This document shows, piece by piece, positions 36,047 through 64,000 of a stretch of DNA of 64,000 nt (positions are counted from its first letter, which is position 1; each line of letters starts with the position of its first letter). The DNA lies in assembly GCA_030141605.1 (NCBI GenBank), contig JAQGDQ010000214.1, positions 248,001 through 312,000 of the forward strand, written 5' to 3'. The notes below the pieces were generated by a model. It had not been told where the DNA came from. It did no database searches and saw nothing but the letters and a program-made list of their open reading frames with translations. The position numbers and the translations under genes were made by a program. This DNA comes from Tubiluchus corallicola (lineage: Eukaryota > Animalia > Priapulida).

Positions 36047-36270
36047 TTGCAGGCAATGCCAGTGATAAACGGGGACTACTCGTCTACGGATTTCCCGTCT
36101 ATTTGCGCTGGATGCGGAGGCAAAATCATTGATAGGTACTACCTTTTAGCTGTAGATAAACAATGGCACGTTCACTGCCTCACCTGCTGTGAATGCAAAA
36201 TTCGTCTGGATTCAGAACTCACCTGTTTTGCAAAGGACGGAAGCATTTACTGTAAAGACGATTATTACAG
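36047..36270 (+). CDS. Lhx2/9: Lhx2/9 exon 2, LIM domain 1
   Basis: CAGCGGKIIDRYYLLAVDKQWHVHCLTCCECKIRLDSELTCFAKDGSIYCKDDYYR, diagnostic of Lhx2/Lhx9/apterous LIM1; acceptor tttcag|, donor ag|gtatgt (phase 2). Confidence 0.98.
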
Positions 36271-36518
36271 GTATGTGAGTACATTTTAAGTTTGTAGACG
36301 GTTCAAGATCATTTTCGTCTTATCAGTTTTTTGTCTTTCCTTCAGTGCAGAAACTACGCAAGACTGTCACATATTTCCATAATGACTATTCACTTTAAAA
36401 GTGATCTCTTTCTTATAAATTTTCTAATTAGAAATTTTTCTAAATCACATTTTATAGCCTCCATGGCATTAACCCAATTCCCAAGACATGAAAATATAAG
36501 AAATGTCAGAAAACCGAA

Positions 36519-46077: not shown

Positions 46078-46225
46078 CTTTAGTAGCAGCCGCAGTAGTG
46101 ATAGCATGCACTTTTGCTCATAAAAACTATAATTTTAGTTTTGAAATAAAAGCACAAGCTTGAAATTTCATAATGGTTTTGCTGAATTTTTAAAATATTT
46201 AGACGATTTTGTTTGTTTTTTTCAG

Positions 46226-46590
46226 GCGGTTTTCCGTGAAAAGATGTGCGCGTTGCCATATGGGCATCTCAGCCAACGAACTTGTGATGAGAGCGAAGGA
46301 ACTTGTGTATCATGTTAACTGTTTCACCTGCGCTTCATGCAATAAACCATTAACACCTGGCGAACATTTTGGCATGAAGGACAGTACCGTGTACTGCAGA
46401 ACCCACTATGATTTCATGCTCCAGGGTGATTACCTGCCGCCGCATATGCAAGGCTCTCCCGGTCTTCCCGGACATCATGGTTGTCCCACAGGAATCCCGT
46501 TTTACAATGGCGTCGGTGCAGTTCAGAAGGGAAGACCAAGAAAACCGAGGAAGAGTCCAGCACCGGACCTCGATGGGTGCGGTTCTTTGG
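46226..46590 (+). CDS. Lhx2/9: Lhx2/9 exon 3, LIM domain 2 and linker
   Basis: RFSVKRCARCHMGISANELVMRAKELVYHVNCFTCASCNKPLTPGEHFGMKDSTVYCRTHY and the family motif FYNGVGAVQKGRPRK; acceptor ttcag|, donor g|gtaagt (phase 1). Confidence 0.98.
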
Positions 46591-49500
46591 GTAAGTTTTA
46601 CTTAGCTCACTTTCTGTGAATAACATGCAACTTGAACTTCTGGAACCATAAAGTAGAACATTTTTTAATGCAGTGAAGCCTTACTGCGTAGAATTATAAT
46701 TCTCAATCCAAAGACGTGGATGACAAGGTTTTTTCTTCATCTATACTACTGATATAACTTGTAATGTCTATTTATACAACGTTCTCAATTAATGAAAATA
46801 AAAAGTGAGCGTATAGCACTTAGTCAAGATGAGTCAAGATCGTATATATAGACAAATTTTCTATTAAAGAATTTTCTTTGAAGAATTTACGTTTTTACTA
46901 TGCGAAAGTCCTTTGTGAAACAAATAATGATATCGTCATAGAAACTTGTGCAAATTAATAAAACTGTATATAAATAGACGGGTCACTTTGGTGGTTCTAA
47001 ACGTGGCGTAAGCAAACACCAAGTGTGGTGCATGCAGGAGCGTAAAACCAAAACTCGAACCGCAGACTTGTTTTTGACTATGCAGTCACATCATTCTTGT
47101 GCTTTTAACACTCAATATTTCAATTATGTGAGTAGTGTAACACATAAACTGAAAGCTCTTTAATAATTAAAGAACAAAAATAGTTCCTAAATCCATATTT
47201 GGAATAGGATGTTAGGTGTTTCGCCGAACAAAACAAGTCCAAACACAAAACAAAAAAATCGATGACAACAGTTTGCTGGATAGATGGAGAGCTAAATTAC
47301 TACATTGACCACGACGTTTAGGGCGGGGTGTATTTCAACGAACCTTCATACCTTTACAACTGAAAACTAAACCCCTCTAGTTAAATATAACAGTGAATTG
47401 GACAGTGTGTAGTACAGCAACTTTACACTGTTAACCTTTGATTGTAGGTGCAACAGATAAATTAAACTATATTAAGACGCATTATTAAAACATACGAACT
47501 TAACTCACTCGTGAATTTCATATTATGTACTTGTTTATACTGTAATAAATATGAAAATTTTTACACCATTTTACAAATAAAACATGTACTTTTGTAAGCA
47601 AGCCTAATTTCAATTTATCTTTTATCCGGATGTGGGTAAATTTTTGTTATAAAGACGTTATACGGCAGTATATTGTTATCTACTACGAAATCTTCTGTCC
47701 TTCGTGGGAACCTTACCGATCTTCGTCAAGTGCGGAAACTCATGAAAATTCAGAAATTCTTGTCTTACGGCACAGAACGAGCATTTTGCTTGAATTCTTA
47801 CTTCCCACGCGCCAAACACAGCGCCTCTTTATGTTGGCAAAGGAAAACGATGATTACAAAAGATCCCCCAATGTCAATGGTGTCGACACAACAAAACGCG
47901 TGTTGCCCAAATTCCTTGTTTGAAAATTACACAGCAACAGGGCAGCATTCTTATCAGCAAAACATGTCTCGTGTTTATTATCCAAGCTAATGTGTCCGCT
48001 TCTTTCTTCGCGACGGCTTATCAAACACCTATCTTGCAAGGCCTATAACGTGATTTGCGTGAAATTACCCATGAAAATGGCGGCAGCAAAGCATGAAAAC
48101 GTAGTCTATTTTGTCCTAGGCGGATAATTTGATAACGAGGGTAATGATATTATTAGAGCCGTATTGTGTGCTTAGAACTTGAAGACAAAATAGCGGTCTC
48201 ACGTTCTGGTTATTATATATAATATATGTAGAAGTCGCTTCATCTCTGGCGAGCTTCCTTAACATCACGTGGGTGGAATAAGCATAATTTATTTAAAATT
48301 TATTTTAGGAGTTTCTGTAATGAACATTTGTTTGCAATACTAAATTTAACTTTTTTCAAAATATGATTATTTTAAGAATTTTTTTTTCGTAAAATAAAAT
48401 TTATTTTTGCGCTTTAGTGATATTTTACAATTGAAACGTAGCTGATGATATCATTTCAACTTACACTTTTATCCGAAATTATCGCACGCTACTTCTCGAG
48501 ACTTTTTTACATTTTTTATTTTCTGACAGAATCCTTTAATGGCACTTTTTTAAATGAGTAGCTTCAGAAACCAATGAATATTATAATGAATTTGTAATTG
48601 TGGAGAAACATATCGTTTCAAAACCATTCACGCTAAATAAAGATGATTCACTTAATTATTGATATAATAACCAAACATCACTGGCGTAGGTCACATGACT
48701 GTCACGTGATGACAGTATATATCTCGTTCTAAATTCACTCCCTCGTAAGAGAGATCGTGTGTCTTTCAAGTGGTGGTATAAGCTCCTGTTTGTTTTGCTA
48801 CTTATTCTCAAGTGGTAGAAAGCAGGGTATCGTTCCATATGTCTGCGAGCTAAATAAAATGTAAAACCCGAGATTAAACGGGTTGGTACTGGACATGTGT
48901 GAATCAACATCGCTTTAATGTCTTCCGAATTTGTACAACAAGGAATTAAATACCAGAAGAAACATTTGTCACGCGCATGTTTACACTGGCATTGTAGGCT
49001 ACATAGGCAAAAAACGACGAGAAAACAAAAAATATGAACTCCGATGCACGAAGAAACATCAAACCGCTAGACAGCTTAACAAAAATTTGCTAAATTTTGT
49101 TTTGATACCAGGTGAACACGGCAATAACTAAAATGTTCGGCTTACAATATAGTTTGCCAGAAAATAAAATACTGCAAAAAACAGAAAGCATTTTTTAAAA
49201 AACTACAGTATTTCTGTGCAATGTACAAGCTGACTAACATTAAGTGAAAAATGTAGGGATAACGCGCAATAAATATCCAAGCAAAAATAAAAAAACAGTG
49301 ACATTTGAGATGGAACTTATTCTACCGATACTTGTACATTAAACATGATGGCGACTTAGAAAAACTTAGAAATTAGAAATGGAAAATAATTATTTGAAAA
49401 ATAAAATTTTTATGGCAAATAAATGGTAATCTTTGGTTAGTTTACAATAATATAATCTGCATATGTATTTTTAAAGAGATTATTATAATATAGTCACTAG

Positions 49501-59983: not shown

Positions 59984-60180
59984 TGTTGAGTGAGGGTGAA
60001 ACAGACATGGAAGGGTATACTCATCACGGAAACGGAACTCGCACGAAGCGCATGCGCACATCGTTCAAACATCATCAGCTACGAACAATGAAGTCTTACT
60101 TCGCACTCAATCACAATCCGGATGCAAAAGACCTGAAGCAGTTAGCTCAGAAGACGGGATTAACCAAACGTGTTTTACAG
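59984..60180 (+). CDS. Lhx2/9: Lhx2/9 exon 4, homeodomain N-terminal part
   Basis: RTKRMRTSFKHHQLRTMKSYFALNHNPDAKDLKQLAQKTGLTKRVLQ, the apterous/Lhx2/9-type homeodomain; acceptor ttttcag|, donor cag|gtaggt. Confidence 0.98.
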
Positions 60181-61032
60181 GTAGGTCCATAAGGAAACTC
60201 ACCTTAAATTTCATTCACACCATGTCATACTGTTTTTATGTCCGCTAAATTTCCATCATTAGCTGTACTGTGTAATAATGATTTGTACTACTAGTTTTTG
60301 TGATAGAAATGATGACAAATACTTTGGCTTATGTATAGTCTTACATATATACGTTCGTAATAGCTATCATCAGTCTTTGGGGAAAGTATGCAGGCTGCCT
60401 GCATGAGCATTAAGTTTGATTTTCCTAGATGCCCTGTAATTTACTGAATGATTTTAATGATATCAGAGAAAAATGTTTGCATTTTTTTAATCTAAGAAAC
60501 CTTGCAATTCTTTATAAAACAAAATTATTACTGCTAACTGGCAAGTACTGTTCAATTTTTATAACTCAGTTGTGCAAAAGTAAATCATTAGAATTTTCAG
60601 CATAAGGTATATAACTCTAGTCCCTAATAATCACGAGTTTTAGTACATGAAGCTTAGCTATACCATCAAGAAAAGATAGCTAGTGCATTCAGAAGCATTT
60701 CATTTCTGAATACTAGTAATTAGTTTTACATTTAGCAAAGCTTCACCAACCAGAACATGAATCCAATTTATTGTGATTTTCTGACAATGTCAGAAAAACT
60801 TTCCCCTCCTTGCTATGTATTTGTAATCAAAAAGACATAATTAAGGAGTCTCAATTTGATATCTATCTTTATTATTTTAATGTTTTAACAACTTGCTTCA
60901 CACGTATTTATAAATTTTAACTTTTTATTACTCCCACCTGTATCTCTTACTCGATGCTTGCATTGTTGTTTGCTGCTCCTTTACCTTTTGGTATTTTTTG
61001 CACAGTTCTTTTACTGCTCTCATTTTCCACAG

Positions 61033-61278
61033 GTGTGGTTCCAAAATGCAAGAGCGAAATATCGGCGTAATCTCTTACGGCAAGAACAGGGAAAACTCCC
61101 GGAAAAACCGGGTTCAGATGGGAATAATCCTGTGAACAGTACGCCTCAACTGGGCGACCTGCAGGCATCCTCACCCAGTCTGTCCGATATAAGTACTGGA
61201 CACTCACTTACCGAATTACACGACGTCACTGGCAGTTCCACGGAATCTCCGCGTCAGACCCTGGAGGATCTCTTCTGA
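61033..61278 (+). CDS. Lhx2/9: Lhx2/9 exon 5, homeodomain helix 3 and C-terminus
   Basis: VWFQNARAKYRRNLLRQE...SPRQTLEDLF*; acceptor ccacag|; the five exons total 1170 nt (389 aa + stop) in one frame. Confidence 0.97.
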   Translation: MWFQNARAKYRRNLLRQEQGKLPEKPGSDGNNPVNSTPQLGDLQASSPSLSDISTGHSLTELHDVTGSSTESPRQTLEDLF

Positions 61279-61344
61279 CTACATGATGCCAATGAGATGT
61301 CATCTTCTGAGGGTCCTCGACAGGTTCTTGAAGAACTTCTCTGA
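61279..61344 (+). CDS. Candidate stop-codon readthrough extension of Lhx2/9 (x-LHDANEMSSSEGPRQVLEELL*)
   Basis: TGA-CTA context; in-frame peptide is a paralog of the preceding LHDVTGSSTESPRQTLEDLF with mostly synonymous differences. Confidence 0.6.
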   Translation, partial: LHDANEMSSSEGPRQVLEELL

Positions 61345-61540
61345 CCACGAAGACATTAGAATCCACATGCTCGGACTGTAGATTTTCTTGTACAATCTTG
61401 AATGCTTCTTTCGTGTGAAGTTTTCTCTTGTATATAACTTATTTATGATTCCCTTTTGTGTGTTGTAAATGTGGTGACATGTGATGCTTTGATTTGACCA
61501 TTATCTCTTATTATTGTTATTTATTAAAACGTGATGTAGT

Positions 61541-61546
61541 AATAAA
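61541..61546 (+). terminator. Candidate polyadenylation signal of Lhx2/9
   Basis: First AATAAA after the stop (ATTAAA at 61523 also present), following a U-rich 3' UTR. Confidence 0.5.
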
Positions 61547-63539
61547 TGTATACAATACATATAGACAATTTTCAACAAACATAGATATTATTTTTTTCAC
61601 ATTTGTGGAAGACTACCAATTGATGTTTGTAACTACATGTATTTATTATGAAATCTGAAAACTGAACAGTAAAGCATAGAATTTCAAACTTTGCCGTTTG
61701 ACTGTCTTCAAACCACTGTAGAACAAAACGTTTTGGAATTCCTTCAGAATCAAGCAAAATTTAAAAAAAAAATCAGCAACTTTTCTGGAATTTTTACGCC
61801 ATTTTAGAATTTTTTACTAAGATTTTACCGTTTACACACTTTGCTGGCTGTAGTATTTTTGATCGTTAAATAACAGCACACCTTAATTAATAATTTATTG
61901 TAATATTTTTTACATCTTAATACATTTTGTGCTTGAATTAGTGTGAGTGTGCAAAATTTTGCTGTATAAACTTAGTTATGATAATAAGCCCAAACCCAGT
62001 GCAGTGTAGCCTATACAAGTTGGATGTGTAGAACTATCCATTACTGTCCTTTGGGCAACCAAAAATCAATACATATCAGCCAAGTGTTTTAATGTTTGTT
62101 AAAATGCAATCCTAGTTTCCCCTACAGTAATGTCCCTGATAGCTTTCATTTATACTGTATTTCGTACCTATGTTTAGCCCTATATGCTGTGCTTATAGAT
62201 TTTCCTGTGTAGTGAAACTTAATCATCAGACGTTATTATGGAAAAATGACTACAGGTGGCGCCATATAAACGCTTGGTAGCGCATTGTTGTAAAGCTAGA
62301 ATGATTATGATGCTCTGCGTCCATCACGTAGAACACTAGACTTTATACAAAACAGAGAAAGGTTCCAGAAGTAAAAAACGAGTAATTTTAACTCTATAGA
62401 CTTTCTTCTTGTAAAATACAACATGGAAATATTTCAAAACTATAGATCAGTTAAAAAAACTTTTTAGCTACAATATTCTATTAATGCTTCTTTATCCGAA
62501 TGTTGTTACTATGATAGTTGTGATGTATATATTATAATATACCAGTTGTTTGTGATATCGTGAAATAACCAGATTTTGCTGACTCGTATTGTTCTCTAAT
62601 CGTTAAAAACACACTATGCTTCAAATATCATTTTCTTACAAGACAAAACGTGAATAGGACACAAGAAAAGCAAAAAACATCCCAAAATACTTATAAATGA
62701 TAACATTTATGTATTTCCAGACTACGTCAGCCATGTACATTTTTTTACAGTGCAACTGCACAAAATTACACAAAAACTAATTACATTATGCGACAGTCAA
62801 GTTGAAGTTTAACACAAATTGTTTGGAAAAAGTTGCACAAGATTTTTAAGGAACCAGAGACATATTATTAGCTTACCTCTAGTGATTAGCTTAACTAGTG
62901 GCAACGCAGAAAAAATAAACATTAAGCCTAAGTTCTTGTGTATTTTTTAAATAAAAAGTTAAATACATAGGCTATACGATAATCTAGTTCAGTAGTGATT
63001 ATGAAAGATCTAGAAAATATTTTTGTTATATTTCATCCATGCTTCTCAGCCAAATCTTAATCTTATTAAAATAAAATATCGTAAGTCTTTAATTACCCAT
63101 TTAATCAAGATAAACATTGCGACTACTAGTTGCTATATTAAGGTTCATATGCTTGATAGTCAATGACTTTCAATCACAAAGTTTTGCAGGAATGGTAATA
63201 ATTACTACACTCAATATTACTAATCAGTACAGAGCTGAACCAGTTTCAAGATGTCTAAAGAAAAAAAACATTGACTTATGTGACATGCAAACAGCACTTG
63301 TAGAGTTTAAAAACCATATTTGTGCATGACGTATTTAGTACTGCTTCGGTCTTTCACATAAAGTCTGAAGTTGCAATAAACGCAAAGGAAATAAACAGCA
63401 GGATAACTTAGTTTGAAAAGAAGTTAGCAAAGCTAATCATGACTTTATCTGAAAACAATAAAATCTTAGAGGTACAAGTCTAATCACGCCACACCTATTT
63501 ACAAATAACTTTAAAAATTTGCTAAAGACAATCACAAGA

Positions 63540-63649
63540 TTAACCAAACTGGAACTGAAAATGCTGACCACCGCCCATGCCACCCAAATTAAACATCATA
63601 CCTCCTGGTCCTCCAAAAAATGTTTGGAATATTGTTTCGGGGTCAATAT
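63540..63649 (-). CDS. DNAJC7: Last coding exon of a DnaJ co-chaperone, DNAJC7/TPR2-like (DIDPETIFQTFFGGPGGMMFNLGGMGGGQHFQFQFG*)
   Basis: Minus-strand acceptor ttttctttcag|; DP-x-x-IF-x-x-FFGGPGG...FQFG-stop matches the DNAJC7-type C-terminus; the rest of the gene lies beyond the window. Confidence 0.78.
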
Positions 63650-63758
63650 CTGAAAGAAAAGTAATGTTATACACAAACATCCAACCTGGAACAGTTAAAG
63701 ATGGTTTACATTTGATCACAGTTGGCAGCTCTGTATAGTACGTGTTCTTCCAATCTTC

Positions 63759-63806
63759 CACTACCACTACCACTATCACTACTACTACTACTACTACTAC
63801 TACTAC
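63759..63806. repeat. (ACT)n microsatellite in the DNAJC7 intron
   Basis: Direct reading. Confidence 0.9.
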
Positions 63807-64000
63807 CAGTGTATTTTATGGCTTGAAAGATTAAAGCACTTAAAACATCAATTCATAATGAAAAGTTAAAAAAAATATTATTAGCAATTTTTTAAAATCA
63901 GCCTAGATTTTGAATAAACTCAGTTACGCAAGTTATGAGAGCAGTTAAGTGTCTAAACTAGCACCACGACGAAAAAATTGGTGTCCTAAAACAATAGTTC

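Follow-up and report, generated by a model that had tools for sequence, protein, structure and literature searches.

The window (the whole stretch of DNA analysed here, 64,000 nucleotides) carries a LIM-homeodomain gene on its forward strand, with four mapped exons and, behind them, candidate signals for 3′-end formation:

36050..36271 (approximate bounds), + strand: Lhx2/9 exon, first LIM domain (tblastn with P0002, P0005 and P0011; Pfam LIM, E 2.7e-16)
46224..46592 (approximate bounds), + strand: Lhx2/9 exon, second LIM domain (83% identity to P0001; Pfam LIM, E 3.3e-18)
59986..60180 (5′ bound approximate), + strand: homeodomain exon, helices 1-2 (87% identity to P0001; Pfam Homeodomain)
61033..61275, + strand: coding part of the last exon, VWFQN to LEDLF (reading of the sequence and homology to P0001)
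61523..61546, + strand: ATTAAA and AATAAA, candidate polyadenylation signals (pattern scan)

The homeodomain exon is joined to 61033 over an 852-nt GT..AG intron in a spliced contig of sequencing run X6, and the last exon then reads VWFQN...LHDVTGSSTESPRQTLEDLF up to a TGA at 61276-61278. Two LIM domains followed by a homeodomain, together with named best matches that are Lhx2/Lhx9-like, place the gene in the Lhx2/9 (apterous) family, an assignment that combines domain order with best matches. The nearest protein is P0001, the Lhx9-like protein of Priapulus caudatus (XP_014664436.1), to which identity is 83-87% in the middle exons versus 64% in the last exon. On this basis the DNA probably belongs to a priapulid species distinct from P. 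caudatus. P0001 ends in the same LEDLF, and the first TGA is therefore read as the ancestral end of the protein and not, as a preliminary description of this DNA had listed among the possibilities, as a recent nonsense allele. The P0001 model is itself without the first LIM exon present in the window and in other Lhx2/9 proteins, so it is likely incomplete at its N-terminus. Upstream of the Lhx2/9 gene lie two exons of a serpin gene (Pfam PF00079; 886-1723, + strand), with similar non-coding stretches on either side of them (121-830 and 1860-2460) that by eye are copies of one repeat element.

Behind the first stop the frame continues through a second version of the gene's own end, and the features around this junction are:

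61216..61278, + strand: copy 1, made up of the final 20 codons with their TGA (alignment of the copies; the copy closer to the P. caudatus end)
61276..61282, + strand: first stop and its context, TGA-CTA-C (no difference listed in runs X1, X2, X3, X5 and X6)
61279..61344, + strand: copy 2, a 21-codon in-frame tail and its TGA, candidate readthrough extension (alignment, codon models)
61321..61323, + strand: CAG/TAG polymorphism in the tail (T at a depth of 20.7 of 40.3 in X2; X1 and X3 show T)
61336..61388, + strand: sequence spanning the second stop and its downstream flank, free of listed differences in X5 and X6, the diverged runs; a possible 3′ UTR element

Copy 2 reads LHDANEMSSSEGPRQVLEELL (61279-61341), followed by TGA at 61342-61344, PRRH and TAG. 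It had been described as an old tandem duplicate, and our recount bears out each particular: the copies agree at 12 of 20 residues, all but one of these 12 are written with differing codons, and the only indel between the copies is one whole-codon gap. Codon positions 1, 2 and 3 are identical at 14, 14 and 6 of 20 (pS 0.88, pN 0.28). The BLOSUM62 score of the alignment, 51, is reached by none of 11,606 six-frame control windows of the window sequence (maximum 31) and by none of 20,000 residue shuffles (maximum 41). A DNA repeat finder left the duplication undetected, as expected at such divergence. The likeness of the copies reflects a genuine duplication of the terminal 20 codons, TGA included. 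The P. caudatus C-terminus scores 77 against copy 1 versus 39 against copy 2, and amino-acid change thus fell nearly all on copy 2. Directly behind the first stop, copy 2 has CTA where copy 1 has TTA; across the four mapped exons, CTA encodes one leucine of 30. As to the double readthrough that had been suggested, the nucleotides of PRRH-TAG behind the second stop are unchanged in X6, four codons being too few for a coding signal.

Of 36 fetched Lhx2/9 tails, 28 carry a terminal [LIF]-x-[DENS]-[LI]-[FY] motif a single time and none carries it twice; the window gene is like other Lhx2/9 proteins in its two LIM domains, homeodomain and terminal motif, but differs in that the motif is never doubled among them (a comparison of protein sequences only). 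The vertebrate-type ending named in the preliminary description occurs, as a string, among the fetched proteins: SPSQTTLTNLF stands in P0033, and P0032 reads SPPQTTLTNLF. Because 15 of the motif-bearing tails continue for a further 8-9 residues, a free C-terminus is no universal need for the motif. Four of the fetched proteins (P0022, P0023, P0024 and P0028) continue through a W beyond the terminal motif, likely the result of a gene caller reading TGA as Trp, and give no evidence of readthrough.

The first stop is UGA followed by CUA (61276-61281), which alone gives 1.5% readthrough in human cells (PMC4132726), while position 61282 is C and the +4 G carried by the full readthrough motif (PMC4132726, PMC4973966, bioRxiv 10.64898/2026.07.14.738498) is absent. 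The claim of a readthrough-prone context stands for TGA-CTA, which is unchanged in two diverged runs; the sequence here is TGA-CTA-C and not the full mammalian TGA-CTA-G. High-confidence readthrough cases in Drosophila are enriched in UGA-C (PMC13278127). Stop and CTA-CAT are unchanged in X5 and X6 at ~10-14% divergence, nine nucleotides being too few, in expected changes, to be telling.

Structure-stimulated readthrough of the alphavirus or headcase type has a stable stem-loop 3′ of the stop. No stable RNA structure was found behind the Lhx2/9 stop in four folded stretches reaching at most to 61420 (z 0.59, 0.06, 0.75 and 0.96), which separates the gene from that type (z 0.06-0.96) and means that any readthrough would depend on local context.

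Five of the six public runs listed cover the tail (X1, X2, X3, X5 and X6; X4 has no coverage there), and all were examined as contigs. One sample underlies X1-X3, possibly the one from which the window sequence derives; X5 is DNA at a depth of 3.9, and X6, which holds the spliced contig, is guessed to be RNA, no run being labelled as such. X5 and X6 bear the same species label, yet differ by ~10-14% at the Lhx2/9 locus, which suggests cryptic species or loose labels; they differ from each other at 5 of 72 sites. The differences listed are 10 of 16 for X5 in 61185-61342, 12 of 15 for X5 in 61345-61494 and 12 of 13 for the X6 piece, those close to contig ends being hidden and left unclassified. 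Seven of the ten listed X5 differences are common to X6 and so are unlikely to be errors. A closed-circle X6 contig (61233-61368, 136 nt plus one extra A, with no splice ends given) has a depth of 114.5 versus 36.3 for the spliced homeodomain contig; it is likely an artefact of library amplification, but may be a circular RNA.

No indels in the tail are listed in X5 or X6. A one-nucleotide loss at 61311 in X2 (7.2 of 64.2 depth), seen on records with and without the other letter, is put down to sequencing error in a G run. The TAG allele at 61321 ends the tail after 14 codons and removes QVLEELL, including the LxxLL, and stands at ~50% in one same-species sample, that is, heterozygous if the sample is one animal or at ~50% frequency if it is a pool. 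A common nonsense allele is thus present within the candidate extension, in that one sample. In one diverged run the third residue of LEELL is changed from E to D, and the P and Q preceding LEELL are altered.

Recent evolution of the tail is neutral-like. The distinct changes listed in X5 and X6 are five synonymous and no non-synonymous in the coding end versus three and seven in the tail (Fisher p = 0.026), giving the tail a recent omega of 0.75-0.95; three synonymous changes of ten is as expected of neutral DNA (P 0.45-0.59), and tail divergence is 13-14% (X5 6/45, X6 9/63) versus 11-14% in the UTR (12/112 or 12/87). These changes, and the ~50% allele that removes LEELL, speak against present-day selection, which the preliminary description had proposed with emphasis on LEELL. 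Behind the tail, X6 shows no differences in 61336-61368 (33 nt) and X5 has none listed in 61364-61388 versus 12 in 61389-61459 (71 nt). The probability of no difference in 27 nt at 14% is 0.016, for a difference-free stretch noticed post hoc; 61336-61388 is possibly a 3′ UTR regulatory element, and it has no fold signal.

The older signal is harder to read. A naive Fisher test on pS/pN (p 1.5e-4) was rejected as overstating selection, because copy 1, itself constrained, supplies synonymous differences regardless. By the same token, the earlier argument that such a pattern is not to be expected of a 3′-UTR copy evolving neutrally was too strong, as a coding copy 1 alone yields synonymous changes. 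In a codon model with copy 1 fixed at omega 0.05, a neutral copy 2 lies 2.2-2.9 log units below the best fit of omega 0.2 for the pair (p ~0.02-0.04 by conversion). On a tree with X5 and X6 the old copy-2 branch has omega 0.22-0.36 and the recent branches 0.60-0.64; testing the old branch for an omega below 1 yields p = 0.06, 0.08 or 0.16, depending on which of three settings is used, and the difference between old and recent omega is not significant (p = 0.36-0.55).

Bayes factors that integrate over the age of the duplication give 3-12 against lifelong neutrality on codons alone and 24-224 with an indel term, and ‘selected, then relaxed’ over ‘always neutral’ scores 6-12 and 28-179, respectively. 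The indel term assumes frameshifting indels at 0.05-0.10 per substitution, a rate taken from AT-rich intron/UTR that may be too high for the tail; a hand count over five intron/UTR pieces gave five indel events, none a multiple of three, versus 43 substitutions. The coding signal carries a selection bias in that the tail was chosen for looking coding. Constraint on copy 2 is thus weakly supported on codons alone (p = 0.02-0.16, and 0.06-0.16 with the diverged runs) and well supported only once the intact frame is counted. We favour past translation of the tail, as a tentative reading.

The explanations that follow were weighed by judgement, with the Bayes factors, the nonsense allele and a low prior taken into account. 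The prior for readthrough here we take to be low, because abundant readthrough is reported only for Pancrustacea (PMC5100048). Our preferred reading, held tentatively and at somewhat less than an even chance, is that the tail is an old readthrough extension, born of a terminal duplication, that long served as a weakly selected minor isoform and is now likely dispensable or decaying. The end of the Lhx2/9 gene would have been duplicated head to tail, including its TGA, leaving a leaky TGA-CTA junction at which a near-cognate tRNA may decode the first UGA in a minor fraction of translation events. Readthrough would add 22 residues, including a second conserved motif of the L-x-[DE]-L-F type, and the minor two-motif isoform would have been kept for long by weak selection, its low abundance accounting for amino-acid change nearly all on copy 2. 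Selection would then have relaxed recently, leaving the tail dispensable or decaying; this last part draws on ten changes and one allele, and is put forward on that footing.

A credible though doubtful alternative is that copy 2 is a 3′ UTR duplicate evolving neutrally, with an age of ~0.5 substitutions per site, its frame kept by luck and any leakage functionless. The synonymous excess is then attributable to coding copy 1, the TGA comes with the unit and CTA is one transition from TTA; for the pair, neutrality costs just 2.2-2.9 log units, the tree analysis does not reject it at the 5% level, and both the neutral-like recent evolution and the nonsense allele fit. Yet third positions agree at 6 of 20 against 14 of 20 at each of the first and second, ~40 neutral substitutions should have brought some frameshifts and none are seen, and the Bayes factor disfavours neutrality by 24-224 when indels are included, though by only 3-12 when they are not.

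It is unlikely, in our judgement, that readthrough is still functional, with the tail weakly and continuously selected, in the manner of insect readthrough regions, and the TAG allele tolerated or balanced. A single omega of ~0.45-0.53 over the whole history fits as well as two, and ‘selected throughout’ has a Bayes factor of 24-224 versus neutral with the indel term; moreover, neither X5 nor X6 departs from the window in stop, CTA or frame, the recent tail changes include several conservative ones (N to D, D to E and E to D), and selection constrains readthrough regions less than it does other coding DNA (PMC5100048). Against continued function stand the nonsense allele at about half depth in one same-species sample, with its loss of QVLEELL, the X6 changes P to R, G to D and Q to N in the SPRQ-like part, and a synonymous share of three in ten tail changes where single-nucleotide variants in Anopheles readthrough regions are 43% synonymous (PMC5100048).

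Very improbably, the tail is the fossil of a once-open frame in which both copies formed one ORF until a later nonsense mutation between them brought back the ancestral terminus. Such a history needs no readthrough, and a model with a first phase at omega 0.05, followed by neutral evolution over 0.2-0.3 substitutions per site, comes within 1 log unit of the best; but both units end in TGA, so that the stop must be lost and then regained, the stop is common to X5 and X6, the ancestral LEDLF is kept by copy 1 and not by copy 2, and the motif occurs twice in 0 of 36 fetched Lhx2/9 tails.

It is barely credible that the route to the tail is a splice that bypasses the stop, A-to-I editing or the insertion of selenocysteine: in-frame AG acceptors do exist at 61296, 61311 and 61323, with an in-frame GT at 61225, and the C/T at 61321 keeps a YAG, but there is no AG dinucleotide from the first TGA to 61295, the acceptor pyrimidine tracts are 0.44-0.63 versus 0.81 at the true acceptor, two of the three acceptors are GAG, none would include LHD, and the best of them, 61323, is lost in X6. 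These acceptors agree with the earlier view that splicing explains the tail poorly, and the check for editing or splicing that it had proposed came out the same way: the X6 contig, from the sole RNA-like run, crosses the stop unspliced and has no A-to-G change listed there, at the level of contigs, which drop rare variants. Nor is there a SECIS among eight weak hits of an Rfam scan of 61000-64000 (to E 10). As far as contig-level RNA data show, the first stop is not a recent nonsense mutation, a site of splicing or editing, or a selenocysteine codon.

To return to readthrough, the preferred reading has parallels in two known systems. Functional UGA-CUA(G) readthrough is described in vertebrates for AQP4, MAPK10, OPRK1, OPRL1, MDH1 and LDHB (PMC4132726, PMC4973966, bioRxiv 10.64898/2026.07.14.738498) and for the vitamin D receptor (PMC5868278). 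The Lhx2/9 junction resembles these in its UGA followed by CUA, its short in-frame extension and in that RNA structure is not required, but differs in having C at +4 in place of G, in a candidate extension that duplicates the protein's own end and segregates a nonsense allele, and in a tail known from sequence alone and without deep conservation. With +4 G absent, a nonsense allele present and the tail predicted from sequence, we class the Lhx2/9 tail as a plausible candidate readthrough extension and not as a proven member of the UGA-CUA(G) class.

Insect readthrough genes include the transcription factors vvl/drifter and traffic jam (PMC5100048, PMC13278127; cf. PMC8417969, PMC9226519). Here the likeness lies in UGA-C on a developmental transcription factor, in an extension constrained less than the first frame, and in gain and loss in old genes, whereas the window animal, by nearest match, falls outside Pancrustacea. 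The insect cases rest on 20-species alignments or ribosome profiling, and the Lhx2/9 tail on two paralogous copies and two diverged runs. Gain and loss of readthrough extensions could not be told apart in PMC5100048.

Searches of the open literature turned up no report of readthrough in Lhx2/9, although apterous or Lhx genes may stand in supplementary candidate tables. The word ‘apterous’ is absent from the main text of PMC13278127, and priapulids go unmentioned in that of PMC5100048. Among the literature matches listed, judged by title and start of abstract, none reports an extension born by duplication of a gene's own end. Searches for Lhx9 with LxxLL gave no literature match, and those for priapulid Lhx2/apterous no mention of priapulids among the matches listed. 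No protein covering the tail was found in the protein searches (1 of 329 candidates matched; best 18 of 47; 21 matches; 2 of 3), the best stretches of the 21 protein matches ending at query residue 82 or earlier. Metagenome scans for the tail gave 479 pattern matches, none confirmed, and a degenerate junction pattern gave none.

Should the tail prove neutral, it would warn that dN/dS computed between paralogous copies, one coding and one in a UTR, exaggerates selection. A working priapulid isoform made from a self-duplicated end, in which a leaky UGA-CUA would tune the output of one versus two motifs and CAG/TAG would switch the second motif on and off within the species, is also possible, though we think it improbable. 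The evidence that the duplicated motif can be lost is direct, in the form of the TAG allele. If the readthrough reading is true, the gene would extend programmed readthrough to an ecdysozoan that is not a pancrustacean, adding a case beyond insects and crustaceans and a hint at a function for the conserved Lhx2/9 terminal motif, and would offer a direct view of the birth and loss of an extension: a datable self-duplicate with copy 1 as its internal control and a segregating null allele, so that birth, constraint and decay may be readable at one locus.
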